The notes: generated by a model not told the origin, from the sequence alone. Positions 9,750 to 24,926 are shown, numbered from the stretch's first letter. The stretch is DNA of 64,000 nucleotides from Spirochaetia bacterium (GCA_963662265.2 CAXXHA010000035.1:128001-192000), one strand, 5' to 3'. Made by a program: numbers and translations.

Positions 9750-11039
9750 TCAGTCTACACAGATCTGTATTTCATTACTGGAGAGTTTTTTTCCGAAAGC
9801 ATCTCCCGGAATTGTGAGTTTTACCATTTCTCCCGGCAGGAGGTTTTTTTTCTTTACTGTGTAAATATCCCTGTCACCTGATTTAACCGAAAGAACACTG
9901 TCTCTGAATACTGTATTTACTCTCATGAAGACATCAAAACCTTTGCCGCTTTCAGGAGTTTTAATTTTCTGCGGTACTGTATATGAAATTCCATTTCCGT
10001 TTATTATGTTAATAACGGGGGTTGCGAATACTTTGTCATTCCCCTGTGTCTCTGTTTCTTCCTTTCTCTTTTTGTCCAGTGCTTTAATCCCTGCATGAAA
10101 GCCTGCCTTTCTGCTTTCCTCTGTGACAAAATCTACAAGGTCATGAACATGGACAACATTTCCGCATGCGAATATTCCGCTTACAGATGTCTCCATTTGT
10201 TCATTGACAACAAGACCTCCAGTCCTCTGGTCAATTTCTATGCCTGCTTCTCTTGAAAGTTCATTTTCCGGTATGAGGCCGACAGAAAGAAGAAGAGTGT
10301 CGCAGTCAAACTCGATTTCTGTCCCTTGAACCGGTTTTCTGTTTTTATCAACTCTTGATACTGTTATTTTCTCGATTTTCTCTTTCCCGTGAATGTTTGT
10401 AACTGTGTGTCCCAGGAAAAGCGGAATTCCGTAATGATCCAGGCACTGTACAATATTTCTTGAAAGACCATTGGAATAAGGCATTACTTCAACAACCCCT
10501 TTTACATCCGCTCCTTCAAGGGCAAGCCGCCTGGCCATGATAAGACCGATATCGCCTGAACCGAGTATGAAAACTTTTTTACCCACCATATACCCTTCAA
10601 TGTTTATAAACCGCTGGGCTGTTCCTGCTGTAAATATCCCTGCAGGTCTTGCGCCGGGTATGGCAATGGCTCCCCGTGTTCTCTCCCTGCAGCCCATTGC
10701 GAGAATTATCGATTTTCCGTGAACAGTCTGCATCCCGGTACTGCTTCCCAGGACTAAAACACTCTTTGATTCAGTTATTTTAAGCACCATTGTATCAAGC
10801 ATGAATTCAATGCCGGCTTCCTCTGCCATGTTTATGAACCTCTGGGCATATTCAGGTCCTGTAAGTTCCTCTTTAAATACATGAAGACCGAACCCGTTAT
10901 GAATACACTGCTGAAGAATTCCTCCCGGTTCAACATCTCTTTCTATAATCAATATTTTTGTACAGCCTGTTTTTTTTGCTTCTATCGCTGCAGCAAGTCC
11001 TGCAGGTCCCCCTCCGATTACAATCACCTCATAAGTCAT
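9750..11039 (-). CDS. FAD/NAD(P)-dependent oxidoreductase, second copy of the GlpB-like subunit
   Basis: GGGPAG, GGILQQCIHNGFG, LAMGCRER, GSGDIG and CGNVVHVHDLVDFV motifs; clear paralog of 11598-12866. Confidence 0.9.
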   Translation of the reverse strand: MTYEVIVIGGGPAGLAAAIEAKKTGCTKILIIERDVEPGGILQQCIHNGFGLHVFKEELTGPEYAQRFINMAEEAGIEFMLDTMVLKITESKSVLVLGSSTGMQTVHGKSIILAMGCRERTRGAIAIPGARPAGIFTAGTAQRFINIEGYMVGKKVFILGSGDIGLIMARRLALEGADVKGVVEVMPYSNGLSRNIVQCLDHYGIPLFLGHTVTNIHGKEKIEKITVSRVDKNRKPVQGTEIEFDCDTLLLSVGLIPENELSREAGIEIDQRTGGLVVNEQMETSVSGIFACGNVVHVHDLVDFVTEESRKAGFHAGIKALDKKRKEETETQGNDKVFATPVINIINGNGISYTVPQKIKTPESGKGFDVFMRVNTVFRDSVLSVKSGDRDIYTVKKKNLLPGEMVKLTIPGDAFGKKLSSNEIQICVD

Positions 11040-11056
11040 TTTTTCCCCCTGTTAAT

Positions 11057-11120
11057 AAAAAAAGCCGGAGGGTCCTCTTCTGTTCTGAAGAAAACACCTC
11101 CGGCTCTCGTCTCTCCGCCG
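11057..11120 (-). promoter_or_regulatory. GlpP-type antitermination leader/terminator, copy B
   Basis: Minus strand reads CGGCGGAGAGACGAGAGCCGGAGG...CCTCCGGCTTTTTTT, the same motif-plus-terminator as four other copies. Confidence 0.8.
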
Positions 11121-11245
11121 GATATATCAATATTTATTTTGTTGTTTCATCCGGTATTCTTTTTTATACCGGTACTGTTTTGCTTATATTTAACAGTAGT
11201 TTTCTGTTGCAGATCTCTGATTCTGCATACCCAGCTGTATATATT

Positions 11246-11596
11246 TCACATGTTTCTTGTTACAACTACATTCACCCCTGTATCAAATACATTTTCAAGA
11301 ACCACATCTCCCATGGTGACAGGCGAAGTCACTTCAACCTTGTTGATCAGCTTCATGATTTCAAACTTATACTTTTCAGGTATAGCTTTGTCTGTTTTTA
11401 CCGGTACTACCTTATGGATGCCTCCCCTTATTTTTACAGTTGAGCAGATCATTCTTGTAGGATTTGTAAGTTCCTCTTTTGCGTATAGAATCCCTCTTTT
11501 GCACTTATTGCCGGTTATTACAGGTTCTTCGGGAGTTCCCTCGATTTTAAGCCTGCATCCCATGGGGCATACAATACAGATAAGCTCATTTTTCAT
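11246..11596 (-). CDS. DUF1667 family small CxxC/Fe-S subunit (GlpC-like partner)
   Basis: CIVCPMGC...GNKCKRG motifs; ATG 11596 follows RBS GAGGAGG. Confidence 0.9.
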   Translation of the reverse strand: MKNELICIVCPMGCRLKIEGTPEEPVITGNKCKRGILYAKEELTNPTRMICSTVKIRGGIHKVVPVKTDKAIPEKYKFEIMKLINKVEVTSPVTMGDVVLENVFDTGVNVVVTRNM

Positions 11597-11597
11597 T

Positions 11598-12866
11598 TCA
11601 GCCTTCCTCCTCAGACACAAGATTTATACTAATAACCCCTGTTGTATTTTCAAATGTCTCTTTTTTTACTGTTATTTTAATCATTTCTCCGGGGGTAAGA
11701 TGTCTCTCCTTGAATCTGGCAAGTTCCCGTCTGTTGTTTTCAAGAATAATCAATCTGTCGTTATAGACACGGTCGACTCTCATGAATATATCAAGCTTAT
11801 CAGGCAGGTTTGAATATCTGAATCTGTGCGGAACTGCATATGTGAGTCCTCCCGATGCTTTGAAGTATATATAATCCCCATCCCTTTTAAATTTTCCTTT
11901 AACATAGCTTGAAGCGTTTTTTCCGGCCCTTCTGCTTTCTGCAGTTACGAAATCCACAAGATCATGGACATGGACAACATTGCCGCATGCAAAAATACCT
12001 TCAACAGATGTTTCCATGCTCTCGTTCACAACAGGTCCACCTGTTTTCCTGTCTAGTTCTATACCTGCCTGTTTTGAGAGTTCATTTTCAGGTATCAGCC
12101 CTACAGAAAGAAGAACTGTATCGCATTCATATTCTTTCTCAGTTCCCGGGATAACCTGTTTGCTCATGTCAGTCTCTGCAATTATTACGCTTTCAACCCT
12201 TTCCTTTCCTTTTATCTCAACAATGTTGTGGCTCAAGAGGAGGGGGATGTCGTAGTGGTCAAGGCACTGAACAACATTTCTCGTTAGTCCCTTTGGAAAT
12301 GAGCTTCGCGCAACAACAGCTTTTACCTCACCTCCTTCGAGAACAATCCGTCTCGCCATGATCATCCCGATATCTCCTGATCCCAGTATTACCACCTTTT
12401 TCCCGACCATATAGCCTTCAATATTTATATACCGCTGTGCAGTCCCTGCTGTAAAAACACCTGCCGGTCTTTCCCCCGGGATTGATATAGCCCCTCTTGT
12501 CCTCTCCCTGCATCCCATGGCAAGAACAATTGATTCAGCGCTTATTTCTTTTTTACCGTGAGTATTCATTACCACAATCTCTTTACTGCTGTTTATTGAA
12601 GTAACTATTGTGTCGAGGAGTATTTCGATTTCATCATTAGTCGCCATGTTGATGAATTTCTGTGCATATTCAGGCCCTGTAAGTTCCTCCCTGAATTCGA
12701 ATAATCCGAAACCGTTATGGATACACTGCTGGAGAATTCCCCCCGGCTCTATATCCCTTTCAATGATGAGCACTCTGTCAATGCCGCTTCCTTTTGCTTC
12801 TATTGCAGCAGCAAGTCCTGCCGGACCTCCGCCGATTACAACAATATCGTATTTTTCTTTTTTCAT
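11598..12866 (-). CDS. FAD/NAD(P)-dependent oxidoreductase (GlpB-like subunit)
   Basis: GGGPAG, QCIHNGFG, GCRER and GSGDIG motifs; lies between the glpA-like and DUF1667 genes. Confidence 0.9.
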   Translation of the reverse strand: MKKEKYDIVVIGGGPAGLAAAIEAKGSGIDRVLIIERDIEPGGILQQCIHNGFGLFEFREELTGPEYAQKFINMATNDEIEILLDTIVTSINSSKEIVVMNTHGKKEISAESIVLAMGCRERTRGAISIPGERPAGVFTAGTAQRYINIEGYMVGKKVVILGSGDIGMIMARRIVLEGGEVKAVVARSSFPKGLTRNVVQCLDHYDIPLLLSHNIVEIKGKERVESVIIAETDMSKQVIPGTEKEYECDTVLLSVGLIPENELSKQAGIELDRKTGGPVVNESMETSVEGIFACGNVVHVHDLVDFVTAESRRAGKNASSYVKGKFKRDGDYIYFKASGGLTYAVPHRFRYSNLPDKLDIFMRVDRVYNDRLIILENNRRELARFKERHLTPGEMIKITVKKETFENTTGVISINLVSEEEG

Positions 12867-12882
12867 GGCAAACGCCTCTCTG

Positions 12883-14310
12883 CTATTTTGTCTTTCCGGT
12901 CAGTATATAGGAATTCTTCTTCTCGAGAACAATTTCCTCCCGCGGTGTGTTAAGCTCTCTTGCGAGTATTTCCTGAACTTTCGGGCCGCAGAATCCACCC
13001 TGGCATCTTCCCATGCCTGGACGGCACCTCCGTTTTACTCCATCAAGTGTTTTTGCTCCAACCGGCCTGTGTATTGCATCAAGTATATCCCCTTCTGTGA
13101 TATTTTCACATCTGCAAATTATCCTGCCGTATAAGGGATTCTCTTTAAGAAGTTTTTTCTGTTCAGATTCGCTCCTCTCAAGAAAGAGTTTTCTTTCAAT
13201 ATTCGGATTGAAATCCTTCTTCTTTTTCATTGCCAGTCCCGCTTCTTCGAGAAGTTCAAGCACATAACGGGCTATTGCAGGGGCTGCTGTCAGGCCGGGA
13301 GACTTGATTCCCGCTACATCGAAGAAATTCTCAGTACCGGGAGCTTTTTTTATGATAAAATCTCCTGTATCCGGTTCTGCCCTCATTCCGGCAAAAGTCC
13401 TTATGCTGTTTCTTGTTGTTATTTCCGGGATCAGTTTCTTTGCCCCGCTGCTTGCCTTATCGAGCAGTTCTGAAGTTGTTGAAACATCTTCTGGATCTTC
13501 GAGATCGTCTGAAGAAGGGCCGAGTATCAGGTTCCCGTGAACAGTCGGTGTCACAAGTGTTCCTTTTCCCATTTTATCAGGGCACGGGAAAATAACTGAA
13601 TTAACCATACACCCTTCACATTTATCAAGCAGGAAGTACTGTCCCCTTCTGGGCTTTATTTTGAAATCCTCTTCTGCCGCCATATTGTGTATTTTGTCTG
13701 CAAATACGCCGGCAGCATTTACAACATATTCAGCTTCAACAGAATCTGAATAGCTTTTTATTATGTAATGAGTATCTTTTTTTTCGATTGACGATACACT
13801 GAAGTTGAGCTTGAGTTCACATCCGTTCATTACAGCGTTTTCAATCAGGGAAATTGTCAGGAGCATCGGATCAATTATTCCTGCTGTTTCAGCGAGCAGG
13901 GCCCCTTTTGCTTCCGGGTTTATATGGGGTTCCCTTTTTTTCAGTTCCCCGGCAGAGAGAATTTTCATTCCCTTTATTTTATTGTTTAGACCTCTCTGAT
14001 AGAGTTTTTTAATATGATCAATCTGTTCATCGTCATATGCAACTACGAGAGAACCTATTCTTTTAAACGGTACATCAAGTTCACTGCAGAGCCTGTCAAA
14101 CATGGGATTCCCCTCGGAATTGAATCTGGCCATCAGGGTGTTTTCTTCCGGATCATACCCGGCATGAATTATTGCGGAATTAGCTTTTGATGTTCCACAT
14201 GAAACATCATTTTCCTTGTCTATAACTATTACCTTGAGATTGAACCGGGAAAGATCTCTTGCAATTGCTGCTCCTGTGACTCCTGCTCCTATGATTGCAA
14301 CATCATACAT
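12883..14310 (-). CDS. FAD-dependent glycerol-3-phosphate dehydrogenase GlpA/LhgO-like protein with C-terminal BFD-like [2Fe-2S] domain
   Basis: GAGVTG, TSKANSAIIHAG, SPGLTAAPA, ICRCE and GMGRCQGGFC motifs; glpP is nearby. Confidence 0.85.
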   Translation of the reverse strand: MYDVAIIGAGVTGAAIARDLSRFNLKVIVIDKENDVSCGTSKANSAIIHAGYDPEENTLMARFNSEGNPMFDRLCSELDVPFKRIGSLVVAYDDEQIDHIKKLYQRGLNNKIKGMKILSAGELKKREPHINPEAKGALLAETAGIIDPMLLTISLIENAVMNGCELKLNFSVSSIEKKDTHYIIKSYSDSVEAEYVVNAAGVFADKIHNMAAEEDFKIKPRRGQYFLLDKCEGCMVNSVIFPCPDKMGKGTLVTPTVHGNLILGPSSDDLEDPEDVSTTSELLDKASSGAKKLIPEITTRNSIRTFAGMRAEPDTGDFIIKKAPGTENFFDVAGIKSPGLTAAPAIARYVLELLEEAGLAMKKKKDFNPNIERKLFLERSESEQKKLLKENPLYGRIICRCENITEGDILDAIHRPVGAKTLDGVKRRCRPGMGRCQGGFCGPKVQEILARELNTPREEIVLEKKNSYILTGKTK

Positions 14311-14387
14311 ATAATATCCTCCAGAAAGGTATGCCGGATTACGGCACTATAAAATAACTTTAAACCAATTGATAAATCAAAAAAAGC

Positions 14388-14454
14388 AAAAAAAAGCCAG
14401 ATAAAAAGACACCTGTCCCGGTATCGTTTTATCTGGCTCTCTTTTCTCCAGCCA
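14388..14454 (-). promoter_or_regulatory. GlpP-type antitermination leader/terminator, copy A
   Basis: Minus strand reads TGGCTGGAGAAAAGAGAGCCAGATAAAA...TTTTATCTGGCTTTTTTTT, between a consensus promoter and the glpA-like gene. Confidence 0.85.
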
Positions 14455-14477
14455 TGAAAACTATCATGATTTGATTT

Positions 14478-14506
14478 ATTATATTATACCTGTTTATTCT
14501 TGTCAA
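14478..14506 (-). promoter_or_regulatory. Consensus sigma70 promoter of the glpA-like operon
   Basis: Perfect TTGACA-N17-TATAAT on the minus strand. Confidence 0.85.
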
Positions 14507-14570
14507 ATATATGTTACTATTAGCTTTAAACTACTAATTTTGATTTGATCCGGGGATATTTGTTCTGACT

Positions 14571-15713
14571 ATGATAATAAACATACTGAAATGGACAGGT
14601 TTTATTTATGCTTTGCTGCTGCTTGCAAGCCATGTTGCTGTACTTGCAGGTCTTGCTGTTGTGTTTCGAAAAGAGAATAAAGTAAAGCGATTAAAAAAAG
14701 ACACAGTCAAACACAGTGTTTCTGTAGTAATACCTGCACGTGATGAAGAGGCTAATCTGCCCAGGCTGTTCGCATCTCTCGAAAAACAGACATACAGCGA
14801 TTTTGAAATTGTGCTTGTAGATGACAGGTCGGAAGATGATACATATAAGGTAATGAAAAAATTCCAGTCGATACATCCTGACAGGGTGAAAATTATCAGG
14901 AATGAAAAGACTTTCTACAAAAAAAATCCAAAACAGATGGTTCTTGATATCGGAGCAAAAAATGCTTCAGGTGATATTCTCCTTTTTACAGATGCAGACT
15001 GCCGTGTTCCGGAAACATGGGTCGAGAGTATGTCGCATCCTTATAATGACGAGAAGACAGGGCTTGTATTCGGATCTGTGACAACAGGAGGAGGAAAAGG
15101 TCTTCTTGCTAATTTTCAGCGTTTTGATCACCTTCTGAGGTACCATTATACAGCAGCCTGTGCCGGTCTTAAAAATCCGACCGGGGGCTTCGGGAATAAT
15201 CTTTCGATCAGGGCAAAGGCTTTGTCTGATATCGGGGGATTTTCTGATATTGAATTCAGCGTTACTGAAGATGCCCAGCTTATTGCACGTGTCCGTGATA
15301 CAGGTAAATGGGTTATTGAAGCCAGATCTTCCTGGGATTCTACAGTGTTTACAACACCTGTAACTTCGTGGAAAGAGCTCTCTGTCCAGGAGCTCCGCTG
15401 GAGTACAGGTGCAGTGCATGCTCCTGACTGGAAAGCTTTTGCCGGATATGGTTTTGTAATGTACCAGCTTGCAACTGGTGTTTTTGCATTTATTCCCGCA
15501 CTTCTCAATCCCTTTTATTTCCACTTTCTTCTTTCAGGAATTTTAAGCATGCTTGTTGTTTCAACAGCAGTAGGGATACACCTGGGTATGGACAGGAAAT
15601 TCTGGTTTTATCTTGTGCCATCCCTTATAGTTGCAGAATTCCTGTTTCCAACTATTGTTCTCCTTGCAACATTCAAGCCTGTGATAATCTGGAAAGGGGA
15701 GAAGGTCTGCTAG
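14571..15713 (+). CDS. Glycosyltransferase family 2, membrane-anchored
   Basis: VVIPARDEE, VDDRSED, TDAD, TED and QELRW (QxxRW) motifs with flanking TM segments. Confidence 0.92.
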   Translation: MIINILKWTGFIYALLLLASHVAVLAGLAVVFRKENKVKRLKKDTVKHSVSVVIPARDEEANLPRLFASLEKQTYSDFEIVLVDDRSEDDTYKVMKKFQSIHPDRVKIIRNEKTFYKKNPKQMVLDIGAKNASGDILLFTDADCRVPETWVESMSHPYNDEKTGLVFGSVTTGGGKGLLANFQRFDHLLRYHYTAACAGLKNPTGGFGNNLSIRAKALSDIGGFSDIEFSVTEDAQLIARVRDTGKWVIEARSSWDSTVFTTPVTSWKELSVQELRWSTGAVHAPDWKAFAGYGFVMYQLATGVFAFIPALLNPFYFHFLLSGILSMLVVSTAVGIHLGMDRKFWFYLVPSLIVAEFLFPTIVLLATFKPVIIWKGEKVC

Positions 15714-15831
15714 TTTGAGAACCGGAAGGCCTTTTTTCTTATAAAAGAAAAATCCGGATAGAATCTGTTCTCTTGATTCCTGTGTGAATGTGCTTGTAAA
15801 AATGCTATAATTAAGTTGTTGGAGATTCTTT

Positions 15832-16464
15832 ATGAAAATTATTGATTTGACTCATCCGTTATCTTCAGATATGCCTGTCTATCCAGGCACAGACCAGCCT
15901 CAGTTTAATTCCGGATGTACTTTTGAAAAAGACGGTTTCAGGGAAAAAGAGATAACAATGTTTTCTCATACCGGGACCCATATAGATGCTCCTGCCCACA
16001 TGCTTGAAAAGGGAAAGACCCTGGATAAATTCGGTACTGATAAATTTATTGGAAAAGGTTTTCTGCTTGACTGCCGGGGCAAGCCTGAAATTGATATTAA
16101 TCTGATTAAGGAACATGAAAAAAACATAAGGAAGGCAGATTTTCTTATCATAAATACAGGATGGAGCAGTTACTGGGGAATGGATAAATATTTTTCTGGA
16201 TTTCCTGTCCTGACACAAAAAGCTGCAAAGCTTGTTGCTGACTGCAGTCTTAAGGGATTTGGCTTTGATGCTATTTCTGCTGACCCGGTATCAACAGAAA
16301 GCTATGAAATACATAAAATACTGATGGCTCGGGAGATGATTCTGATAGAGAACCTTTGCAATCTTGACAGTATTAAGCATGAAAAATTTGTTTTTTCCTG
16401 TTTCCCCCTCAATATACAGGATGCTGACGGATCTCCTGTAAGGGCGGTTGCTCTTGCGGAATAA
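15832..16464 (+). CDS. Cyclase family metal-dependent hydrolase (kynurenine formamidase-like)
   Basis: HTGTHIDAPAH, ENL and DGSPVRAVA motifs. Confidence 0.92.
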   Translation: MKIIDLTHPLSSDMPVYPGTDQPQFNSGCTFEKDGFREKEITMFSHTGTHIDAPAHMLEKGKTLDKFGTDKFIGKGFLLDCRGKPEIDINLIKEHEKNIRKADFLIINTGWSSYWGMDKYFSGFPVLTQKAAKLVADCSLKGFGFDAISADPVSTESYEIHKILMAREMILIENLCNLDSIKHEKFVFSCFPLNIQDADGSPVRAVALAE

Positions 16465-16582
16465 GCAAAACAGGATATTGATTGTTTCATGATTATATAT
16501 GGAACTCCTTTTTAAACTGCTTTTTTTTAATGAAAAAGTATAAAAAACCGCTTGTAATATAAAAAGTAAATGGTTCAGTTTA

Positions 16583-17149
16583 TTACATATACCATGTGTC
16601 GTATCGTGTTGTTGAAACGCTGCAGGCGCCGGCGTTGAGTGCTGCCATTATATCTTCCCTGTCTGTTATAAGCCCTCCCGCTATTACAGGAGTTGAAGTT
16701 GAATCTGAAAACTGCTTTATAACTTTAGGCATCAGTCCCGGAAGTATTTCAATCGCATCCGGTTTGTAATCTTTAATAGCCTTGAAGCCGGATTCTATGG
16801 AAAGTGAATCAAGAATGAAAAATCTCTGAACTACAAAAATATTCCTTTCCCTTGCTGCTTTTACCAGTGTTGTCTTTGTTGTTATAATGCCGTCAGTGTT
16901 AGTTGCATCTGCAAGATAATCAAGTGCGTGTACAGATCTTGCAAGTCCATCAACAAGGTCAAAATGGACAAAAGCAAGCTTCCCGGAATCTTTAATTTTT
17001 TTTACCATATCCGGAATTGTTGTTATTGTGGAAGTCAGTATAAATATTATTTCATTATCTGTATTGACCGCCTCTTTGATATCTTCTTCTGTTTTTACAG
17101 CAGGTATAATAGGATTGTTTCTGAATATTTCTATAAATTTTCTGTTCAT
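16583..17149 (-). CDS. glpP: Glycerol-3-phosphate-responsive antiterminator
   Basis: PIIPAV, VHFDLVDGL, DGIITTK, QRFFILDS, EILPG, IAGGLI and VSTT motifs. Confidence 0.93.
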   Translation of the reverse strand: MNRKFIEIFRNNPIIPAVKTEEDIKEAVNTDNEIIFILTSTITTIPDMVKKIKDSGKLAFVHFDLVDGLARSVHALDYLADATNTDGIITTKTTLVKAARERNIFVVQRFFILDSLSIESGFKAIKDYKPDAIEILPGLMPKVIKQFSDSTSTPVIAGGLITDREDIMAALNAGACSVSTTRYDTWYM

Positions 17150-17155
17150 ATTTTA

Positions 17156-17183
17156 ATATTATTTATTATGAAAATGATGTCAA
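17156..17183 (-). promoter_or_regulatory. Putative sigma70 promoter of glpP (leaderless)
   Basis: TTGACA-N16-TAATAT with 6 nt before the ATG; no Shine-Dalgarno. Confidence 0.55.
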
Positions 17184-17227
17184 ACCTTTAGTTGCTGAAA
17201 TAACGATAAAAAATAATCAAAAAACAT

Positions 17228-17257
17228 TTGACAGATCAGAAAGGCGCATGTTTAAAT
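17228..17257 (+). promoter_or_regulatory. Putative sigma70 promoter of the ABC transporter operon
   Basis: TTGACA at 17228-17233 and an imperfect extended -10 (TG-T-TTAAAT), just upstream of leader copy C. Confidence 0.5.
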
Positions 17258-17271
17258 ATTATAGCAATACG

Positions 17272-17340
17272 AGGCAGAGAGTAAGAGAGCCGTAGAGTAT
17301 GTCAGATAGGGATATCTGTATATTCTACGGCTCTTTTTTT
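17272..17340 (+). promoter_or_regulatory. GlpP-type antitermination leader/terminator, copy C
   Basis: AGGCAGAGAGTAAGAGAGCCGTAGAGTAT...ATATTCTACGGCTCTTTTTTT. Confidence 0.85.
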
Positions 17341-17461
17341 GATAAATATTTGTTGAGTTTTTAGAGTTTTAATGAAAAATTAAAAAATTCTTACGATAAC
17401 TTAATTTGGGTATATAATGTATTTATGTAAAAATACATTTACAAATCAAAAGGGGGATTTA

Positions 17462-18550
17462 ATGAAACGGTTATTTTTAATTGTTATGTGTCTCTTCATT
17501 CTTGCTTCCGGTGTCTTTGCCGGCGGAAAAAAGGAAGCAGCTGAAGAAGAAAACAAAGTTCTCAGAGTTCTCTCATGGTCAGGTTATATTCTTCCTGAAC
17601 AGGCTGAGCAGTTTAAAGAGGAAACAGGAATCACACTTGAAATTACTCATTCAAGTAATGAGGAAATGATTTCTAAACTCAGAGCTACAAGAGGCGGCGG
17701 ATATGATCTTGCACAGCCTTCACAGGACAGAATCTCATCAATGGTTCAGCAGTACAAGCTGTATCAGCCTATTGATTATTCACAGATCAATGAAGATCAG
17801 ATTGAGCCAAGTATGCTTAAAGCTGTTAAGGCAAATACACTTGTAGACGGAAAGTCATATGCTGTTCCTCATGTATTCGGAACTTCAGGCCTTATTGTTA
17901 ACAGCGAAAAAGCTCCTGATGTTAAAGACTACAAAGATCTTCTTGATCCCAAATACAAGGGAAGAGTTGCATACAGAATGAAAAGACCTACAATTCTTGC
18001 CATGGGTTTTTCACTCGGTTATGATCCTTTTGCTCTTTTTAGTGACAAAGAAGCTTACCAGAAATACCTTGATGATGTAGAAGCAAAACTCATAGAAGGT
18101 AAAGAAGTAGTTAAAAACTACTGGGAAAACGGAGATGCTCTTCTTGAATCAATGAGATCAGGTGAAGTATGGGCAGCAATGGGCTGGGAACAGCAGGCAT
18201 GGAAACTCTATAAGGAAAATCCTGCAATTGACTATGTAGCTCCAGCAAGCGGTTCAATGCAGTGGATTGATACTTTTGCTCTTCCTGCAAAATCAGAAAA
18301 TGTTGCAGGTGCTTATAAACTTATAAACTTCCTTCTTGATCCTGAGCAGGCTGCTGCTTTTACAAATGCTGAAAACTATGGTACAGCATCAAAAGATGCA
18401 GCCAAGTACCTTTCTCCTGAAGCTGCAGCTAACTTTGACAGGTGTTTTACTCCGGAAGTTATGGCTAACATGAATAGTTATCCTCCTGTTCCTCCAGGAC
18501 TTGAAGAAATGGAAGGTAAAGCTATGGATAGAATCAGGGCTGCTAAATAA
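17462..18550 (+). CDS. ABC transporter substrate-binding protein, PotD/PotF family
   Basis: Signal peptide, SWSGYI, SSNEEM, GYDLAQPS and WIDT motifs; ATG 17462 follows RBS AGGGGG. Confidence 0.9.
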   Translation: MKRLFLIVMCLFILASGVFAGGKKEAAEEENKVLRVLSWSGYILPEQAEQFKEETGITLEITHSSNEEMISKLRATRGGGYDLAQPSQDRISSMVQQYKLYQPIDYSQINEDQIEPSMLKAVKANTLVDGKSYAVPHVFGTSGLIVNSEKAPDVKDYKDLLDPKYKGRVAYRMKRPTILAMGFSLGYDPFALFSDKEAYQKYLDDVEAKLIEGKEVVKNYWENGDALLESMRSGEVWAAMGWEQQAWKLYKENPAIDYVAPASGSMQWIDTFALPAKSENVAGAYKLINFLLDPEQAAAFTNAENYGTASKDAAKYLSPEAAANFDRCFTPEVMANMNSYPPVPPGLEEMEGKAMDRIRAAK

Positions 18551-18603
18551 GTAAAAAACTTTTCTGACATAGTGCAGGGCATCTGCACCATATCAACTTA
18601 ATA

Positions 18604-18676
18604 AGGCAGAGAATATGAGAGCCGGATATTGAGGATGCTGAGTTTGTTTCAGGCACCCCTGTGTCCGGTTTTTTTT
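18604..18676 (+). promoter_or_regulatory. GlpP-type antitermination leader/terminator, copy D (intercistronic)
   Basis: AGGCAGAGAATATGAGAGCCGGATAT...GTGTCCGGTTTTTTTT. Confidence 0.8.
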
Positions 18677-19254
18677 CTGTGTGCAGGGAATACTACATTG
18701 TGATTTTATTCGCTGTAAATTACAGATGTCTGTACCTGTTTTGCTGTTTTCAGGCAGTTTAATCTGTTAAAGATATCTGTTAAAGAAGCATTTAAATAAT
18801 GCTGTTTAAGATGAAGATTAAAAGTTATAATATTTAAGTAATAAAGCATTATTTTTATATATAATTTTAATCAGCAACACTGCTTCCGGCAGTAGACTGG
18901 TACAGCTGATCATAAGGTTTCTGTGCAGTATTATTGCATAAGCTTTATGAAAAAAGTACAGGGTTGCTGGTCTGTAGGGTGTGGATTTTCATGGCAGGTT
19001 TAATTCCATCTAACCTCTACAGGATAATAAGTTTCCAAAAGGTGCATAGTTCATATTTTGTGCATAGCGCCTTCTGGGCCGTAAACCTGCCGCGCGAATA
19101 AAAACGAAGGAATGGACAGCAGGGAAGTTTGTGATATTTCATTTCCTTATACGGCTTTTTAATGAGGGAAATATCCGGTTGATATTCTTACAGGGTAAAA
19201 ACTGCCAGCAGATCTTTACCTGTACTGTTCAATTTTGAATGAAGGTGGTAACAA

Positions 19255-20361
19255 ATGCAGATTGATTTGTCTGTGAAAGAGGTGCAGAAACGATTCGGAC
19301 AGTTTACAGCAGTGGATAACGTCTCTTTCGATGTGGAGGATGGTAAATTCTTTTCAATTCTGGGTCCTTCAGGATGCGGAAAAACAACTCTTCTTAGAAT
19401 GATTGCCGGTTTTTACGAACCGTCAGCAGGAAAAATAGAAATTCGCGGCCAGGATATGGCCAATGTTGAACCGAATAAAAGGCCTGTAAATCTTGTATTT
19501 CAACATCTTGCACTTTTTCCGATGATGGATGTCAAGGAAAATATAGCATTCGGTCTGAAACGACGGGGGGAAAAAGGCCCCGGAGTTTATAAAAAAGTAA
19601 ATAATCTGCTGGAAAGAGTAGGGCTTCCTGACCAGGGCAACAAGAGGATAAATCAGCTTTCAGGAGGTCAGAAACAGAGAGTTGCTATTGCAAGGTGTCT
19701 TATTCTTGAACCTGCAGTACTTCTACTGGATGAGCCTCTCGGAGCACTGGACCTTAAACTTAGAGAACATATGAAAGTTGAACTTAAAAAACTCCAGGTT
19801 GAGGTTGGTACAACTTTCGTTTATATCACCCATGACCAGTCGGAAGCTCTTGTTATGAGTGACAAGGTTGCAGTAATGAACCAGGGGAAATTCGAACAGG
19901 TAGATACCCCTCAGAATCTCTACGGTAAACCTGCTTCTTCGTTTGTTGCCCAGTTTGTAGGCGATAATAACCAGTTTATCGGAAAGCTTTCGAAGAATGA
20001 GAAAGGGCAGTTCTTTGTTGTTACAGATGACAATAATAAATATTTCATAGACTCTTCATGTGATGTAAATGAAAATGACAGGGTTGAAATGTATATAAGA
20101 CCTGAAGCTATGATAATCAATCCATCTTCAGATAAGGAGCTTAACAAGATTAAAGCTGATGTAAAAGCAATTCTCTTTGACGGCGGAAACAGCCGTCTTC
20201 TTGTAAATCCTCTTGGAGGCTCAAAGGATATGATTGTTTCACTTCCTCAGAACAGGCAGTTTGATCATATAAAATCAGGCGACAGTGTTGAAATCGGATG
20301 GGATTCCGCTTCTGCAGCATGTTTTAAGGAGTCAGGAGTAAAAACCTATGATGAACTCTAA
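19255..20361 (+). CDS. ABC transporter ATP-binding protein, PotA family
   Basis: GPSGCGKT, LSGGQKQR and LLLDEP motifs with a TOBE-type C-terminus. Confidence 0.93.
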   Translation: MQIDLSVKEVQKRFGQFTAVDNVSFDVEDGKFFSILGPSGCGKTTLLRMIAGFYEPSAGKIEIRGQDMANVEPNKRPVNLVFQHLALFPMMDVKENIAFGLKRRGEKGPGVYKKVNNLLERVGLPDQGNKRINQLSGGQKQRVAIARCLILEPAVLLLDEPLGALDLKLREHMKVELKKLQVEVGTTFVYITHDQSEALVMSDKVAVMNQGKFEQVDTPQNLYGKPASSFVAQFVGDNNQFIGKLSKNEKGQFFVVTDDNNKYFIDSSCDVNENDRVEMYIRPEAMIINPSSDKELNKIKADVKAILFDGGNSRLLVNPLGGSKDMIVSLPQNRQFDHIKSGDSVEIGWDSASAACFKESGVKTYDEL

Positions 20362-21217
20362 GAAAACAAAAATCAGATGGGGATTTATAATGTTTTTTAC
20401 TCCGGTGGCGCTCTGGCTTGGATTATTAATCATTGTTCCCCATCTTGATCTTTTAAGGATGTCTTTTGTAGGTTCTGATTATCTTGGTGAATCAGGATTT
20501 ACATTGAATCATTACAAGAGCTTTTTTACAGAGCCGATATACTGGCTTACATTTGTCAGGACAGCCATGTATTCTATCATTGTAACTGCAATTGTGCTTA
20601 TTATATCGCTGCCTGTCTCTTTTTATGTAACAAAGATTGCCAATTTCAAGGTTCAGGGTTTTCTGATGGTCCTCCTGCTCCTCCCTTTCTGGGTAAGTGA
20701 GCTTATAAGGGTTTACGGTTGGATGATCCTCCTCAGGGAAAGCGGCGTTATTAATAAATTCATGCTTGCCCTCGGGCTTTGGGATAAGCCTATTGAAATG
20801 CTTTATAACGATACAGTTATGATTATGGGGCTTGTATACACAACAATACTTTTCATGGCAGTCCCTGTAATCGGTGTAATGGAAGGTCTTGATGACTCAT
20901 ATATTGAGGCTGCATATGATCTTGGAGCAAAGAAAATAACAATCTGGAGAAAGATTATAATACCTCACTGCATGCCTGGAATTATGTCGGGAAGTATCAT
21001 GGTATTCATGCTTGTGCTTGGAAGTTATCTGACTCCGAACCTCATGGGAGGTAAGAACTCTCTCTGGTTTACACAGCAGATTTACAACCAGTTTATCCTT
21101 TATTTTAACTGGAACCAGGGATCAGCATTCGGATTTATGCTCCTTTTTATGTCTTCAATAATTATCTGGGCAGCTCTCAAATTAAGTGGTCAGCAGCTGA
21201 GTAAGGTGGTGAAATAG
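20348..21217 (+). CDS. ABC transporter permease, PotB family
   Basis: TM segments, LPFWVS and EAAYDLGA. Confidence 0.92.
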   Translation: MMNSKKTKIRWGFIMFFTPVALWLGLLIIVPHLDLLRMSFVGSDYLGESGFTLNHYKSFFTEPIYWLTFVRTAMYSIIVTAIVLIISLPVSFYVTKIANFKVQGFLMVLLLLPFWVSELIRVYGWMILLRESGVINKFMLALGLWDKPIEMLYNDTVMIMGLVYTTILFMAVPVIGVMEGLDDSYIEAAYDLGAKKITIWRKIIIPHCMPGIMSGSIMVFMLVLGSYLTPNLMGGKNSLWFTQQIYNQFILYFNWNQGSAFGFMLLFMSSIIIWAALKLSGQQLSKVVK

Positions 21218-21218
21218 T

Positions 21219-22076
21219 ATGATTAGAACATTACCAAGCAGCAGACTGTATAAAAACAGTTTTCATATTTTTATAATTATTTATTTTGTGGTCCTGTTTG
21301 CACCGCTTCTTGTTACATGTGTGCTTGCATTCAACGATTCAATGTTTCCGTCACTTCCATGGAACGGTTTTACTCTTGACTGGTTTTTCAGTGACGGTCC
21401 GGAAAAGATAGGTATTTTTCATGATAATACAAACCTGAGAAGTATATTTGTATCATTCAAGGTTGCAATTGCAGTTTCTATTCTTTCAACAATAGTAGGA
21501 ACATGCGCGGCATTTCTGTTTGAGCAGGAAGATTTCAGATTCAAGAATGCTCTTTATTTTCTTATGATAGCACCGCTTGTAATTCCCGGTGTTATTCTTG
21601 GTATATCAATTCTTGTATTTACAAACAACTTCGGCCTTTTTCTTGAAGAAACTTTCGGTCTTGATGTTGAGTTTCTTATGCCGGGATACTGGCTGGTTGT
21701 TTTAGGACAGTTTTCATTTATCACAACAATGGTAGCTCTTGTGGTTTCCGCAAGGCTCAAGAAATTTGACAGGACTCTTGAAGAGGCAGCATATAATCTT
21801 GGAGCCAACAGGCTTGAAGTTATATGGTTTATAACTCTTAAATACCTGAGGCCTTCAATCATTGGCGGGGCTGCTCTCGCATTCCTGATGTCGTTTGAAA
21901 ATTTCAATACGACACTGTTTCTTACTGGATCAGAATCCACTCTTCCCATTACCCTGTATCTTCAGGTAAGGGACGGTTCGACTCCTGTAATAAACGCGAT
22001 TTCATTCCTGCTTATTGTTACAACATCGATATTTGCTGTAATAAACCTTTATGCTTCTTCAAAGAACAAGGAGTAG
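21219..22076 (+). CDS. ABC transporter permease, PotC family
   Basis: TM segments, EEAAYNLGA and SFENF. Confidence 0.92.
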   Translation: MIRTLPSSRLYKNSFHIFIIIYFVVLFAPLLVTCVLAFNDSMFPSLPWNGFTLDWFFSDGPEKIGIFHDNTNLRSIFVSFKVAIAVSILSTIVGTCAAFLFEQEDFRFKNALYFLMIAPLVIPGVILGISILVFTNNFGLFLEETFGLDVEFLMPGYWLVVLGQFSFITTMVALVVSARLKKFDRTLEEAAYNLGANRLEVIWFITLKYLRPSIIGGAALAFLMSFENFNTTLFLTGSESTLPITLYLQVRDGSTPVINAISFLLIVTTSIFAVINLYASSKNKE

Positions 22077-22340
22077 ACCGGAATTTTTTAAACGCTTCTG
22101 TTCCTGCCTGGGTAGAGCCCGGAAATCAGCAGTAATGGAAGCAGAAGGATTAAGATTATTCGCAGGGCGGGTATGATCCCTTATCAGGGGGATTCCTGAA
22201 CTGCTCTGTAAAGATTTTGTCAGGTATTGTTAAGGGTGATAGGCCTGCAACACAAAAAATCCTTACAGAACCATAACCGCGAAGCTTGCGGCGGGGTTGT
22301 TGATTCCTGTATGTTTTGATAAACTTACAGGAAATTATTA

Positions 22341-22405
22341 AGGCTGAGATTAAGAGAGCCGGGCACAGAATGGTACTTAGGGATACCTGTGTCCGGCTTT
22401 TTTTT
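22341..22405 (+). promoter_or_regulatory. GlpP-type antitermination leader/terminator, copy E
   Basis: AGGCTGAGATTAAGAGAGCCGGGCACAG...CTGTGTCCGGCTTTTTTTT, immediately before the DHH gene. Confidence 0.85.
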
Positions 22406-22418
22406 AGGGATGGTGAAA

Positions 22419-23645
22419 ATGGATAACAAAATTGGTGAATTTTTTGAAACTTTGCGAAGCGGAATTTCTGCTCTTAAGAATCATGAATCTAAAGAGCTTT
22501 TTCTTCTTCATCATAATGACTCTGACGGACTGACTTCCGGGGCTATTCTTTTGAAAGCTTTCGAGAGGGAAGGGTATGATGTTAAAAGGTTTTCCCTGGA
22601 AAAACCGTATCCGGATGTTCTGAAAAAGCTTTTTGATGAAAACAGCGGAAAAATAATTGTCTTTGCAGATTTTGCAGGAAAAATAGCTCCCATGCTTTCA
22701 GAATTCAACAGGGGAAAAAATCTTGTTCTTGTTCTGGACCATCACAGGGCAGAACCTGTTTTGAATGATAATACAGTACTTAACCTTGATCCTGATCTTT
22801 TCGGACTCAAGGGAGACAGGGATATTTCCGCTTCTGTGGTATGTTATCTGTTTGCCAGAGAACTGAACAGCATGAATGAAGATCTTGTTCATATTGCCGC
22901 ATTCGGCGGAATCGCAGATTTTTATTATCGTGATGAGGATGTTCATTCTTTCAACAGGGAATGTGTTGAAGATGCATGTGCAATCGGATTAATGAGGATT
23001 GAGTACAGAGACGGCAAAGAGCGGTTTATTATACGCCTGGGGGACAGGGAAGTTGATGTTGTGGAATTCTACCCTCTTCTCGATACACTCGGCGGAGTCG
23101 GATTTTATGACAGGGGGCCTGAGAAGGGGATTGATCTGCTTCTAAACGGTCTTGAGGATAGACATGTGGAAGAAATCAATAAACTGATGTCTGTCAAGGA
23201 AAAGATATTTGAAAAAGAAATAAGCAGGATGATGAAAAAAGACTACCATGAAACTGATGACATAATCTGGTTTGATGTTGAAGACAGGTTTGCTCCCATG
23301 GGAGTTAAAATGATCGGGGTTTTCTGCGAGGAAATTGTTGAAGCAGAGTACATAGATCAGAATAAATATCTTGCAGGTTTTCAGAGAATCCCTGACACAG
23401 TTCCCGGATTCGGCGAACTTGAAATGGGACAGACAAAAGTTTCAATGAGAACTTCTGCAGTTCTTTCAAAGAGGATCCTGGAAAAGGAAATTCCCGGGCT
23501 TAATGATTTTCTTCCGGAAGCAACTGTCAACCTCGGCGGTTTTGCAGATGCATGCCACAGTATTGCTGCTGCAACTACAATAGATATCGGCATGGAAGAA
23601 AAGCTGATGGATGAAACACAGAGAACATTAAACACGAAGAAATAA
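22419..23645 (+). CDS. DHH family phosphoesterase
   Basis: HHNDSDG (DxDG), FADFA, LDHH and GIAD motifs. Start moved to ATG 22419 because the longer ORF overlaps the terminator. Confidence 0.85.
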   Translation: MDNKIGEFFETLRSGISALKNHESKELFLLHHNDSDGLTSGAILLKAFEREGYDVKRFSLEKPYPDVLKKLFDENSGKIIVFADFAGKIAPMLSEFNRGKNLVLVLDHHRAEPVLNDNTVLNLDPDLFGLKGDRDISASVVCYLFARELNSMNEDLVHIAAFGGIADFYYRDEDVHSFNRECVEDACAIGLMRIEYRDGKERFIIRLGDREVDVVEFYPLLDTLGGVGFYDRGPEKGIDLLLNGLEDRHVEEINKLMSVKEKIFEKEISRMMKKDYHETDDIIWFDVEDRFAPMGVKMIGVFCEEIVEAEYIDQNKYLAGFQRIPDTVPGFGELEMGQTKVSMRTSAVLSKRILEKEIPGLNDFLPEATVNLGGFADACHSIAAATTIDIGMEEKLMDETQRTLNTKK

Positions 23646-23687
23646 TTCCAAAACTTTATTTTGGGCATTCTTTCTTCGTGTAGCGAC

Positions 23688-23861
23688 AGAGACTTTTCGC
23701 AAGAAAAGTGCTCGATAGCGTTTAATGTACGAATAATTCAGAGACTTCTCCGCAGGAGAAGTGCTCGAACGAAAGAGACTTTTCCTATGGAGAAGTGTTC
23801 GAAAAATGTCAAAAAAGGTTTTGACATAAGCGGCAGGGGCTTCCTGAAAGGAAGTACTCAA
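23688..23861 (+). repeat. Array of four related hairpins with a bulged purine; candidate structured cis-regulatory RNA
   Basis: Units at 23688-23715, 23740-23768, 23774-23802 and 23835-23861, consensus AGAGACTTYYC-loop-GRRAAGT-R-CTC, with compensatory and G-U changes. Confidence 0.8.
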
Positions 23862-23954
23862 AAGCGAACTGATAGCGATATTAAATTGAAATTGATTCGG
23901 GAACTTTGTTATTAGAAGTACCGTAATTATTACTGTTAACGACAGGAGGATAAA

Positions 23955-24926
23955 ATGGGTAAAGGAAGCGCATTTGGAAAAAACATTCTGATAGGGGATC
24001 AGTTTGTACTTAACGGAGTACCGGCAATTGTATCAGCATTGCCGTATAAAACAGAAACAATTGTTGAAAGAGATGAATCTGTAGACGGATTTGTTGTTGA
24101 GGACAACAGGGTAGAAGTTCCCGGATATAAGAAGAAAAAAGAAGCTTCTTGCAGAAAATCATACGAAATGATGATCGAAGCTATGAGTATTGATCTCAAG
24201 AAGAATCCTATGAGAATAAAAGTTGGCGGTGATCTTCTTGCAGGAAGCGGAGTAGGAGCAAGCGGTGCTATAAGCGTTTCTTTCGGTAAGGCATGCAACG
24301 ATGAATTCAATCTTGGCTATGATGTCCTTGAAGAAAACAGAATCGGCTGGGTTGGAGAGCATGCATATCACGGTATTCCAAGCGGTGTAGATAATACTGC
24401 TTCTACTTTCGGCGGACTCATGATGTATATGATCAGGGACGGTAAGAAAATGTATGAAAGAATTGTTCCTGCCAAACCTCTTTATGTTGTACTTGCAAAC
24501 AGCGGAATAACCTACAACACAGCTCTTCTTGATGATCATATTGACGGTCTTATTGAAAATAATCCGGGCAAATTCTATACAAGTCTTAATAAAGTTACTT
24601 CACAGGTTTATGAAATGAAGAAAGCAATTGAAACAGGTGATCTTCAGGCAGTGGGCGATATTATGGTTGAAAACCATAATATCCTTATTGATATGGACCT
24701 CAGTGCTGACAGGCTTATTGAACTCTGTGACAGGGCAATAAAGATGGGTGCATACGGTGCAAAACTCACAGGCGGCGGAAGAGGGGGGTACATGGTGTCT
24801 CTCGTTGAAAGCCCTGAAATGCAGGATAAGATTGCATCAGATTTTGAAAAGGATGATATTCCTGTGATCAAGGCGCAGCTGGGTCTTGGCGCTATAGATG
24901 ATGCTGATTTCAGGCTTCTTGTATAG
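23955..24926 (+). CDS. GHMP kinase, mevalonate-kinase-like (divergent)
   Basis: GKNILIGDQ (cf. KxILxGEH), GSGVGASGA, PSGVDN and KLTGGGRGG motifs; RBS AGGAGG. Confidence 0.85.
   Translation: MGKGSAFGKNILIGDQFVLNGVPAIVSALPYKTETIVERDESVDGFVVEDNRVEVPGYKKKKEASCRKSYEMMIEAMSIDLKKNPMRIKVGGDLLAGSGVGASGAISVSFGKACNDEFNLGYDVLEENRIGWVGEHAYHGIPSGVDNTASTFGGLMMYMIRDGKKMYERIVPAKPLYVVLANSGITYNTALLDDHIDGLIENNPGKFYTSLNKVTSQVYEMKKAIETGDLQAVGDIMVENHNILIDMDLSADRLIELCDRAIKMGAYGAKLTGGGRGGYMVSLVESPEMQDKIASDFEKDDIPVIKAQLGLGAIDDADFRLLV

Follow-up and report, generated by a model that had tools for sequence, protein, structure and literature searches.

A 64,000-nucleotide stretch of a Spirochaetia bacterium genome (contig C35:128001-192000; hereafter the window) carries five copies of a short motif, GGC-N1-2-GAGA-N3-4-GAGAGCC, each joined to a long terminator hairpin and arranged around a gene for the glycerol-3-phosphate-responsive antiterminator GlpP. 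The five elements are very probably conditional intrinsic terminators under the control of this RNA-binding protein. We infer that GlpP binds the motif, that glycerol-3-phosphate (G3P) is the signal, and that polycistronic read-through extends over the copies lying between genes. Testable sequence criteria support placing the locus in the GlpP/glp-leader antitermination family. They likewise support elements that would act at the RNA level, oriented with transcription and confined to the glpP locus in this genome. The assembly from which the window was taken (G000) comprises 41 contigs and 3,770,018 bases and is 90.6% complete.

Five copies of a motif and terminator surround glpP

To assess the motif against chance, 100 dinucleotide shuffles of the 64-kb window were used for comparison. 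The core GAGAN{3,4}GAGAGCC has five matches in the window, at 11102-11115(-), 14435-14448(-), 17277-17291(+), 18609-18623(+) and 22346-22360(+), compared to a shuffle mean of 0.09, and none of the 100 shuffles reaches five. GGC is found 1-2 nucleotides (nt) upstream of every match. Each copy folds as a long hairpin in which the 5' arm opens at GAGAGCC and the 3' end is a tract of 7-8 U. The minimum free energies range from -29.0 to -36.6 kcal/mol, with z values of -4.2 to -8.1, and for each element 0/200 shuffles are as stable. Leader 1 (14385..14459, minus strand) consists of GGCTGGAGAAAAGAGAGCC and a terminator with U8 (-36.6 kcal/mol, z -7.2) and lies ahead of a glpA-like operon. Leader 3 (17267..17342, plus strand; GGCAGAGAGTAAGAGAGCC, U7; -36.3 kcal/mol, z -8.1) lies ahead of a PotD-like gene. 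The internal copies are copy 2 (11053..11125, minus strand; GGCGGAGAGACGAGAGCC, U7; -35.7 kcal/mol, z -5.8), copy 4 (18599..18680, plus strand; GGCAGAGAATATGAGAGCC, U8; -33.9 kcal/mol, z -4.4) and copy 5 (22336..22408, plus strand; GGCTGAGATTAAGAGAGCC, U8; -29.0 kcal/mol, z -4.2), the last of which is right ahead of a DHH gene. In an alignment of the five copies (A1), the motif and U-tract columns are invariant, and inside the stem this holds for only two columns.

The glpP gene itself (GlpP1; 16583..17149, minus strand) is placed between the two groups of copies. Its product matches PF04309 at 3.5e-64 over 173/173 profile positions and has matches to PDB 3kts from Listeria (8.2e-31) and to 1vkf (8.5e-20). 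The original prediction, which was made from this DNA alone, had listed five copies, differing stem interiors with a constant 5' motif and pairing, and a central glpP. All five copies were found within 1-5 nt of where they had been placed, and the alignment and the gene position bear out the other two statements.

Genome-wide, the full motif occurs exactly five times in the 3,770,018 bases, and all five are in the window. Without the GGC, the core has one further match (C39:5157-5171), which is not accompanied by a terminator. A covariance model built from the five copies, R1, scores them at 59.2 (leader 1), 56.5 (copy 2), 71.7 (leader 3), 75.7 (copy 4) and 80.9 bits (copy 5). The next match, at 30.8 bits, is the leader of a second glpP operon on contig C14, and the rest of the genome reaches at most 23.4 bits. 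For a broader model, R2, 51 matches served as the training set, the five window copies and the C14 leader among them; R2 recovers these six sites, beyond which the score falls to 22.4 bits. A match within the window at 46982-47056 (R1, 23.1 bits) was rejected as a false positive, as it is an A/T-rich terminator-like stretch that lacks the motif.

The original prediction had named a generic, genome-wide repeat as an outcome that would count against it. This possibility was checked, and the strict motif is confined to the glpP locus. A repeat of this kind, or a set of ordinary terminators that are alike through recent duplication and have no regulatory meaning, would fit the presence of five copies within 11.4 kb. 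It would also fit the C14 leader, which is clearly a duplicate based on its paralogous promoter and binding-protein gene. However, motif and pairing are retained across stems whose interiors are unrelated, and orthologous copies show compensatory changes (GCCGUAGAG/CUCUACGGC here versus GCCGGAGAG/CUCUCCGGU in the related genome G001). In addition, the same signal is shared by other lineages of spirochaetes and by Clostridia and Fusobacteria, and there is no further copy in 3.77 Mb. Duplication without function is thus extremely improbable.

The element is found with glpP in related genomes

Among 41 related genomes, G000 counted, glpP was called by PF04309 over the cut-off in five (G000, G001, G002, G006 and G009). 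At E<=0.01, R1 matches all five of these genomes, at 4-6 sites each, and one of the 36 glpP-negative genomes (G019). The G019 match (G019:C67) and one in G002 (G002:C1:3773670) were rejected as plain GC hairpins without the motif. Genuine elements are therefore present in 5/5 glpP-positive and 0/36 glpP-negative relatives, so that the model building and scanning proposed in the original prediction recovered sites linked to glpP. The gene is rare in the phylum, with 5/401 sampled genomes positive when this one is counted, and the closest GlpP proteins outside this spirochaete group, from Ilyobacter and clostridia, share about 55% identity. G213, from a spirochaete lineage that also encodes glpP, has canonical copies.

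The positions of the elements are also shared. G001, G002, G006 and G009 all have the glpA leader as well as sites downstream of the binding-protein gene and upstream of the DHH gene. For the leader ahead of the binding-protein gene, the match is weak (18 bits) in G009 and clear in the other three. The spacers that flank the elements vary from approximately 40 to 265 nt across genomes, while the element itself is kept. Copy 4 is found at the same junction in 5/5 genomes with diverged flanks, copy 5 is kept in 5/5 genomes with differing spacer lengths, and copy 2 is retained in G001 (L003:4769-4844).

The genes behind these elements give an indication of the signal. In G001, G009 and G006, the motif is also found ahead of ugpB/A/E (NCBIfam equivalogs at 539-560 bits, cut-off 411), joined by ugpC in G006, and relatives have it ahead of a PhnS-like ATP-binding cassette (ABC) system as well. 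The glpA-like operon here and ugpBAE(C) in the relatives are G3P genes; glpK has no leader. The best indication from within these genomes that glycerol-3-phosphate is the signal comes from the ugp link, which does not depend on the window locus, and from the G3P dehydrogenase operon. Considering homology together with the content of the regulon, G3P is most likely the inducer.

A predicted mini-helix competes with the base of the terminator

Two segments are complementary to the GCC at the end of GAGAGCC, namely the 5' GGC and the terminator 3' arm. In a 54-row alignment (A4), columns 7-9 pair with columns 35-37 in 155/155 cells, and the C9-G35 pair is CG in 49 and UA in 2. A single U-A at the outer clamp pair in A4 comes from the false-positive row at window 46982-47056 and was ignored. 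In the 51 best matches (A5), the clamp is GGC:GCC in 48 and GGT:ACC in 2, with no mixed pairs and one match without a clamp. Three further GGT:ACC cases (L045, G573 and G543) bring the double change to five genomes in all, and in every GGT:ACC case the terminator 3' arm has also switched to GGU. This three-way covariation, as read from the alignments, is that predicted by two alternative pairings of one RCC. The putative GGC:GCC pairing in competition with the terminator base is new here. Within the terminator helix, 97.3% of the cells are paired and 58 two-sided changes are seen, compared to 20.5 +/- 3 in shuffles, for an alignment that was fitted to the model.

To compare the two folds, their energies were calculated. 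The terminators range from -26.2 to -35.2 kcal/mol, whereas the mini-helix alone contributes -0.9 to -2.3 kcal/mol. A fold in which the mini-helix is forced loses 7.4-14.4 kcal/mol of terminator energy, with GGC and the U tract remaining unpaired. Because the mini-helix is marginal and costly, a protein would be needed to favor it, which is also the case for other antiterminators that depend on a protein. The forcing cost is 13.9 and 14.4 kcal/mol for the promoter-proximal leaders and 7.4-11.8 kcal/mol for the internal copies; this difference may suggest that the first gate is the strict one.

A conserved RNA signal over a terminator is also the usual layout of a riboswitch expression platform, and a riboswitch responding directly to G3P, or to a metabolite related to it, without any protein would have this appearance. 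However, the conserved part is 18-20 nt long with a 3-bp helix of the above-described -0.9 to -2.3 kcal/mol, which is too small for a ligand pocket. Rfam 15 has no gathering-score match across the whole window, and at E<=1 the region 10900-22600 returns solely a chance microRNA match (E 0.5, 23.4 bits versus a gathering score of 66). Furthermore, in the related genomes the element occurs only where glpP is encoded. A riboswitch is consequently very improbable.

Control by GlpP would instead proceed as follows. When no inducer is available, the long hairpin and U tract would halt RNA polymerase. In the presence of glycerol-3-phosphate, GlpP would be bound to the purine-rich signal, where it probably recognizes the two (G)AGA repeats and stabilizes the 3-bp GGC:GCC mini-helix around them. 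Binding would sequester GAGAGCC, the bottom seven positions of the terminator 5' arm; the residual hairpin would no longer adjoin the U tract, and read-through would result. Two of the copies would be true 5' leaders, one for the glpA-like operon and one for the PotD-like binding-protein gene. The three copies between co-oriented genes would gate the genes for the ATPase and membrane components of the transporter, the DHH/GHMP pair and the extra oxidoreductase.

Related leaders are present in Clostridia, Fusobacteria and Bacilli

A search with a GlpP alignment against species-representative genomes gave 80 loci, mostly from Clostridia with a few from Fusobacteria, of which 78 are outside this spirochaete group. 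On these 78 loci, R1 has 43 matches at E<=1, and 42 of them are on the glpP strand. They read GGC-N1-3-(G)AG(A)-N3-5-GAGAGCC followed by a terminator. R2 at E<=0.05 matches 29/78 loci, 27 on the glpP strand. To identify the downstream genes, 42 of 63 listed open reading frames (ORFs) were scanned for families; in all, 39 matches outside the spirochaetes were annotated. The first gene after the motif is glpA-like (DAO with Fer2_BFD) in 18 cases, MIP followed by FGGY (glpF-glpK) in 9 cases and one more in Bacillus, and MFS in 2 cases. In 3 loci, judged by position, the gene after the motif is glpP itself. Of 150 Clostridia genomes sampled at class level, glpP is encoded in 44, and 13 have an R2 match at E<=0.001, of which 8 are glpP-positive. 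Every match of at least 34 bits is in a glpP-positive genome, and the five matches in glpP-negative genomes are partial look-alikes.

These data bear on whether another factor, such as a different RNA-binding protein or a small RNA, binds the motif, in which case the proximity of glpP would reflect shared metabolism only. GlpP binding at the motif is a prediction, the DHH/GHMP and PotD-like targets fall outside the classical glp genes, and the motif was undetected at 49/78 GlpP loci elsewhere, all of which would be compatible with such a factor. In contrast, the element strictly co-occurs with glpP over the 41 related genomes, 42/43 cross-phylum matches are on the glpP strand, and the motif precedes glpP itself (3 loci) as well as canonical glp genes. 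There is also no other candidate regulator gene conserved at the locus. A factor other than GlpP therefore has a low probability.

In Bacilli, chromosomal records of Bacillus sp. N5-665 and Staphylococcus aureus, taken from a plasmid collection, were compared. Bacillus sp. N5-665 has glpP, glpF, glpK and glpD in succession. R1 and R2 give its glpF leader 21.9 and 26.7 bits, respectively, and its glpD leader was matched by eye as GGTAGGAGATTTGGAGAGACC with a terminator. The annotated order in S. aureus is glpP-glpF-glpK-glpD. Its glpF and glpD leaders have no R1 match at E<=10; by eye, they carry AGAGACGGGAGAUUUC and GAGAAACGAGAGAUUUG on the terminator 5' arm, which corresponds to GAGA..GAGA(G/U). 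The Firmicute sequence given in the original prediction, GAGA...GAGAGACC, agrees with the Bacillus sp. N5-665 glpD leader, and the two S. aureus leaders are similar to it. Taken together, the Bacilli and spirochaete leaders suggest a common core of two (G)AGA repeats, the second of which is on the terminator 5' arm. The GGC:GCC form is, by this comparison, a tighter subtype of the two-repeat core. Looser versions, for example GGAGAUAUGAGACAG with a terminator, are visible by eye at some Lachnospiraceae and Fusobacterium loci. The E. coli ygcP locus has no R1 match at E<=5, which indicates that the sequence signal differs between subfamilies; the effector of E. coli YgcP is presumably different from that of GlpP.

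Several observations weigh against control by GlpP as described here. No R2 match is found within approximately 6 kb at 49/78 non-spirochaete GlpP loci, and only 8/44 glpP-positive Clostridia genomes are matched under the stricter filters, in a sample for which the sensitivity of the model is low. The unmatched loci and genomes imply that the exact GGC..GAGAGCC form is one subtype and not a universal GlpP site. Two spirochaetes with glpP, G246 and G281, have no R1 match at E<=0.1 and by eye show solely a variant, GGGC..AGAGUAAGCCC. The clamp covariation rests on 5 genomes, low-scoring matches have imperfect clamps (L074 TGC:GCC, L077:5860 AGC:GCG and L016:6646 TGC:GCC) or, in L078 and L129, no clamp, and the invariance of GAGAGCC among the matches is partly circular, as the model was built on GAGAGCC. 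The glycerol kinase gene of this genome (C16:47312-48787; TIGR01311, 728 bits) is not preceded by a GlpP-type leader, and the tie of the PotD-like transporter, the DHH protein and the GHMP kinase to G3P is putative. Finally, the sequence link to the validated Bacillus subtilis system, the leaders of which are the only ones with experimental work behind them, goes through the Bacillus sp. and S. aureus loci and was made partly by eye. In the 90.6%-complete genome, neither an MIP channel (glpF) nor a UgpB above the cut-off was found.

Comparison with known antitermination systems

GlpP has been known since the 1990s, and the mechanism proposed here is not a new one. The locus resembles the B. 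subtilis system in having a PF04309 regulator, intrinsic terminators in the target leaders and a G3P dehydrogenase gene as a target. As described in one report, the 5' untranslated regions of B. subtilis glpD, glpFK and glpTQ contain a promoter, a GlpP binding site and then an inherent terminator (PMC9604022). The inverted repeats of glpF and glpT resemble that of glpD, and the terminators were confirmed by Term-seq, according to a second report (PMC10573289). At the sequence level, the likeness comes from the Bacillus sp. glpD leader, GG(U)..GGAGA..GAGAGACC with a terminator, and not from the B. subtilis sequences themselves. The locus differs from the B. subtilis type in its spirochaete host, in a glpK that has no leader and in a glpF that was not found. 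Its predicted targets include a PotD-like ABC transporter, DHH/GHMP and an extra oxidoreductase, and its tighter consensus includes a GGC:GCC clamp.

Closer are the leaders of Clostridia and Fusobacteria, which share the orientation and GGC-N-(G)AG(A)-N3-5-GAGAGCC with a terminator and which likewise occur several times per locus, with short copies between genes. The difference is in the downstream genes, which in those phyla are glpA-like, glpF-glpK, MFS (GlpT-like) or glpP. This class of leaders is defined in the present analysis and was not found in print. A literature search, with most subscription journals outside its reach, did not find a published consensus for the GlpP RNA target, and nothing relevant on GlpP in spirochaetes was found by title and abstract. 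Among the papers listed that name the protein family, none deals with its RNA target, as judged by title or abstract.

Other regulators share individual features with the predicted circuit. In the B. subtilis trp leader, TRAP is a ligand-activated protein that reads GAG/UAG repeats and promotes termination, whereas GlpP would prevent it. TRAP and HutP have folds unrelated to that of GlpP and read 6 or 11 repeats, compared to two here, and no clamp helix is described for them. The likeness of HutP at the B. subtilis hut terminator is that of a ligand-activated protein that reads short purine-rich repeats (NAG) in single-stranded RNA by the terminator (PMC7430163, PMC2425495). BglG, SacY and LicT, which act on the ribonucleic antiterminator (RAT), are similar in that the protein stabilizes a weak hairpin over the terminator 5' arm (PMC7430163). 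The RAT is, however, a bulged hairpin of approximately 29 nt, read by a CAT domain under phosphorylation control by the phosphotransferase system. Here, in contrast, the loop would be purine-rich, 12-14 nt long and closed by a 3-bp helix, and the fold of the regulator differs.

The six natural variants of this genome, taken with those of its relatives, give a compact model in which two (G)AGA repeats lie inside a 3-bp GGC:GCC clamp in competition with the base of the terminator. With this model, GlpP regulons may be predicted from sequence. It flags as candidates for G3P control the PotD-like ABC transporter, the DHH phosphoesterase and GHMP kinase and the second oxidoreductase, as well as ugpBAEC in relatives. 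It also points to a Firmicute-type antitermination circuit that presumably works in a spirochaete, where glpP is rare.

Gene organization of the locus

On the minus strand, the glpA-like operon has a perfect sigma-70 promoter (TTGACA-17-TATAAT, 14478..14506), with 12/12 consensus positions, which is the top site of a 16.5-kb scan; leader 1 lies approximately 17 nt past the transcription start predicted for it. The leader is followed by a gene for a GlpA/GlpO-like, flavin adenine dinucleotide-dependent glycerol-3-phosphate dehydrogenase with a BFD [2Fe-2S] domain (12883..14310, minus strand; Pfam DAO 1.2e-73, Fer2_BFD 1.3e-14). In NCBIfam, this protein scores 363 bits as a type 2 G3P oxidase, which does not reach the cut-off of 460, and 153 bits as GlpA. 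Next are the gene of the G3P dehydrogenase cluster for a pyridine nucleotide-disulphide oxidoreductase subunit (11598..12866, minus strand; Pyr_redox_2 1.2e-38) and the third gene of the cluster, which encodes a DUF1667 protein (11246..11620, minus strand; PF07892 2.1e-32). The same DAO / Pyr_redox_2 order after the motif is seen in clostridial loci. Copy 2 is located between the DUF1667 gene and a paralogous second Pyr_redox_2 oxidoreductase (9750..11039, minus strand; 57% identity to 11598-12866), 14 nt ahead of the ATG of the latter.

A promoter-like site for glpP, TTGACA-16-TAATAT (17156..17183, minus strand; 10/12 matches), has no leader element downstream. In the opposite direction, leader 3 is preceded by a promoter-like TTGACA-18-TTAAAT with an upstream TG (17228..17257, plus strand), a reading made by eye that falls outside the rule of the scan; the paralogous C14 leader opens with the same TTGACAGAT as this promoter region. 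Leader 3 is followed by a PotD/PhnS-like periplasmic solute-binding protein (17417..18550, plus strand; SBP_bac_8 1.1e-33) with a probable start at ATG 17462. Its NCBIfam PotD score is 130.6 bits versus a cut-off of 582, and its alignment to the paralogue begins at residue 16. Downstream of copy 4 are an ABC transporter ATPase (19255-20361, plus strand; ABC_tran 6.2e-38) and two ABC permeases (20348-21217 and 21219-22076, plus strand; BPD_transp_1 in both). The top NCBIfam matches of these three proteins are PhnT2, PotA, PotB and PotI, every one under its cut-off. Copy 5 is followed by a DHH-family phosphoesterase (22389..23645, plus strand; DHH 9.3e-07) with a probable start at ATG 22410 or 22419, the closest atlas clusters of which are unnamed DHH proteins, and by a GHMP-family kinase (23955..24926, plus strand; GHMP_kinases_N and GHMP_kinases_C) that scores 142 bits with the mevalonate kinase model versus a cut-off of 163. 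The DHH and GHMP genes are paired downstream of the motif in 5/5 genomes.

The PotD-like ABC transporter, the DHH/GHMP pair and the extra oxidoreductase are, as predicted targets, unusual: no PotD-type transporter or DHH gene is downstream of the 39 annotated non-spirochaete matches. The non-glp targets of the original prediction are real and conserved in five genomes, while their substrates may still relate to G3P.

The internal copies 2, 4 and 5 are 125, 54 and 265 nt past the preceding stop codon, respectively. Their spacers contain no promoter-like site with at least 10/12 matches, and the sole 9/12 site is near copy 5 (22150-22177). The promoter scan returned 49 sites compared to 38.6 +/- 5.2 in shuffles; as this is barely over background, the internal copies may still have their own promoters. 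In clostridial loci, many copies are 19-100 nt past a co-oriented ORF, typically between glpK and a glpA-like gene. The serial-checkpoint layout, three of which along one run of genes had been put forward as novel, is not special and is common across the family.

Several smaller features are visible in the same region. A 14-bp hairpin at 18564-18596, right after the stop codon of the binding-protein gene and just ahead of copy 4, has a sequence in common with G001 and could be an mRNA 3'-end stabilizer of the binding-protein transcript. The approximately 575 nt between copy 4 and the ATPase gene (18681-19254) have no ORF of at least 80 amino acids and no Rfam match, and their counterpart in G001 is approximately 190 nt long (L003:11588-11778). 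The 310-nt gap between the DHH and GHMP genes (23646-23954) contains an 84-amino-acid ORF with a TTG start (23661-23915); in G001 this gap is 24 nt.

A second glpP operon and leader variants

The second glpP operon is outside the window, on contig C14 (C14:19427-23054; L013:5428-9055), and has a variant leader, GGCATGTGTATAAGTGAGCC, with a U9 terminator. Its order is the TTGACAGAT promoter, leader, terminator, PotD-like binding protein, GlpQ-like phosphodiesterase, HAD-IIA phosphatase and GlpP2 (C14:22488-23054). The binding protein shares 56% identity with that of the window and GlpP2 shares 66% identity with GlpP1, so that this operon is a partial paralogue of the window locus. The leader reads GGCA-UGUG-UAUAA-GUGAGCC: the clamp, terminator and promoter are kept, and A is changed to U in both repeats. 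It is the sole GUGAGCC among the 51 matches and has the sole spacer without a (G)AGA-like repeat. With a -22 kcal/mol terminator ahead of intact C14 genes, something must antiterminate the operon. No GlpP2 orthologue above 43% identity was found in a metagenome scan, and with no closer relatives of GlpP2 the GUG variant stands on one locus. Two insulated circuits, in which GlpP1 would read GAGA..GAGAGCC at the five window sites and GlpP2 the GUG variant, are conceivable, and we propose this arrangement tentatively, as the less probable case. If true, the joint change of both half-sites alongside a diverged paralogue would be a natural case of re-specified protein-RNA recognition and would pinpoint the bases read by GlpP.

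Two full-length glpP genes are also found in each of a Marinisporobacter metagenome-assembled genome, Clostridium bovifaecis and Bacillus sp. N5-665 (G437, G438 and W01). All leaders seen in the first two are canonical, which indicates that glpP duplication alone is not tied to divergence of the motif. The variant of the other spirochaete genus reads GGGC-UAGAGAAAAAAGAGUAA-GCCC with a terminator near glpP (L106:8708 in G281 and L107:8287 in G246); it has a 4-bp clamp and a 3-nt insertion and is missed by R1.

Between the glpA promoter and glpP (14571-16464), the window contains a family-2 glycosyltransferase gene without the motif. An ORF of 379-391 amino acids, similar in length to that of the glycosyltransferase, adjoins glpP in the four glpP-positive relatives, on either side. 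The neighboring arylformamidase-like cyclase gene (15832-16464) is found in this genome only.

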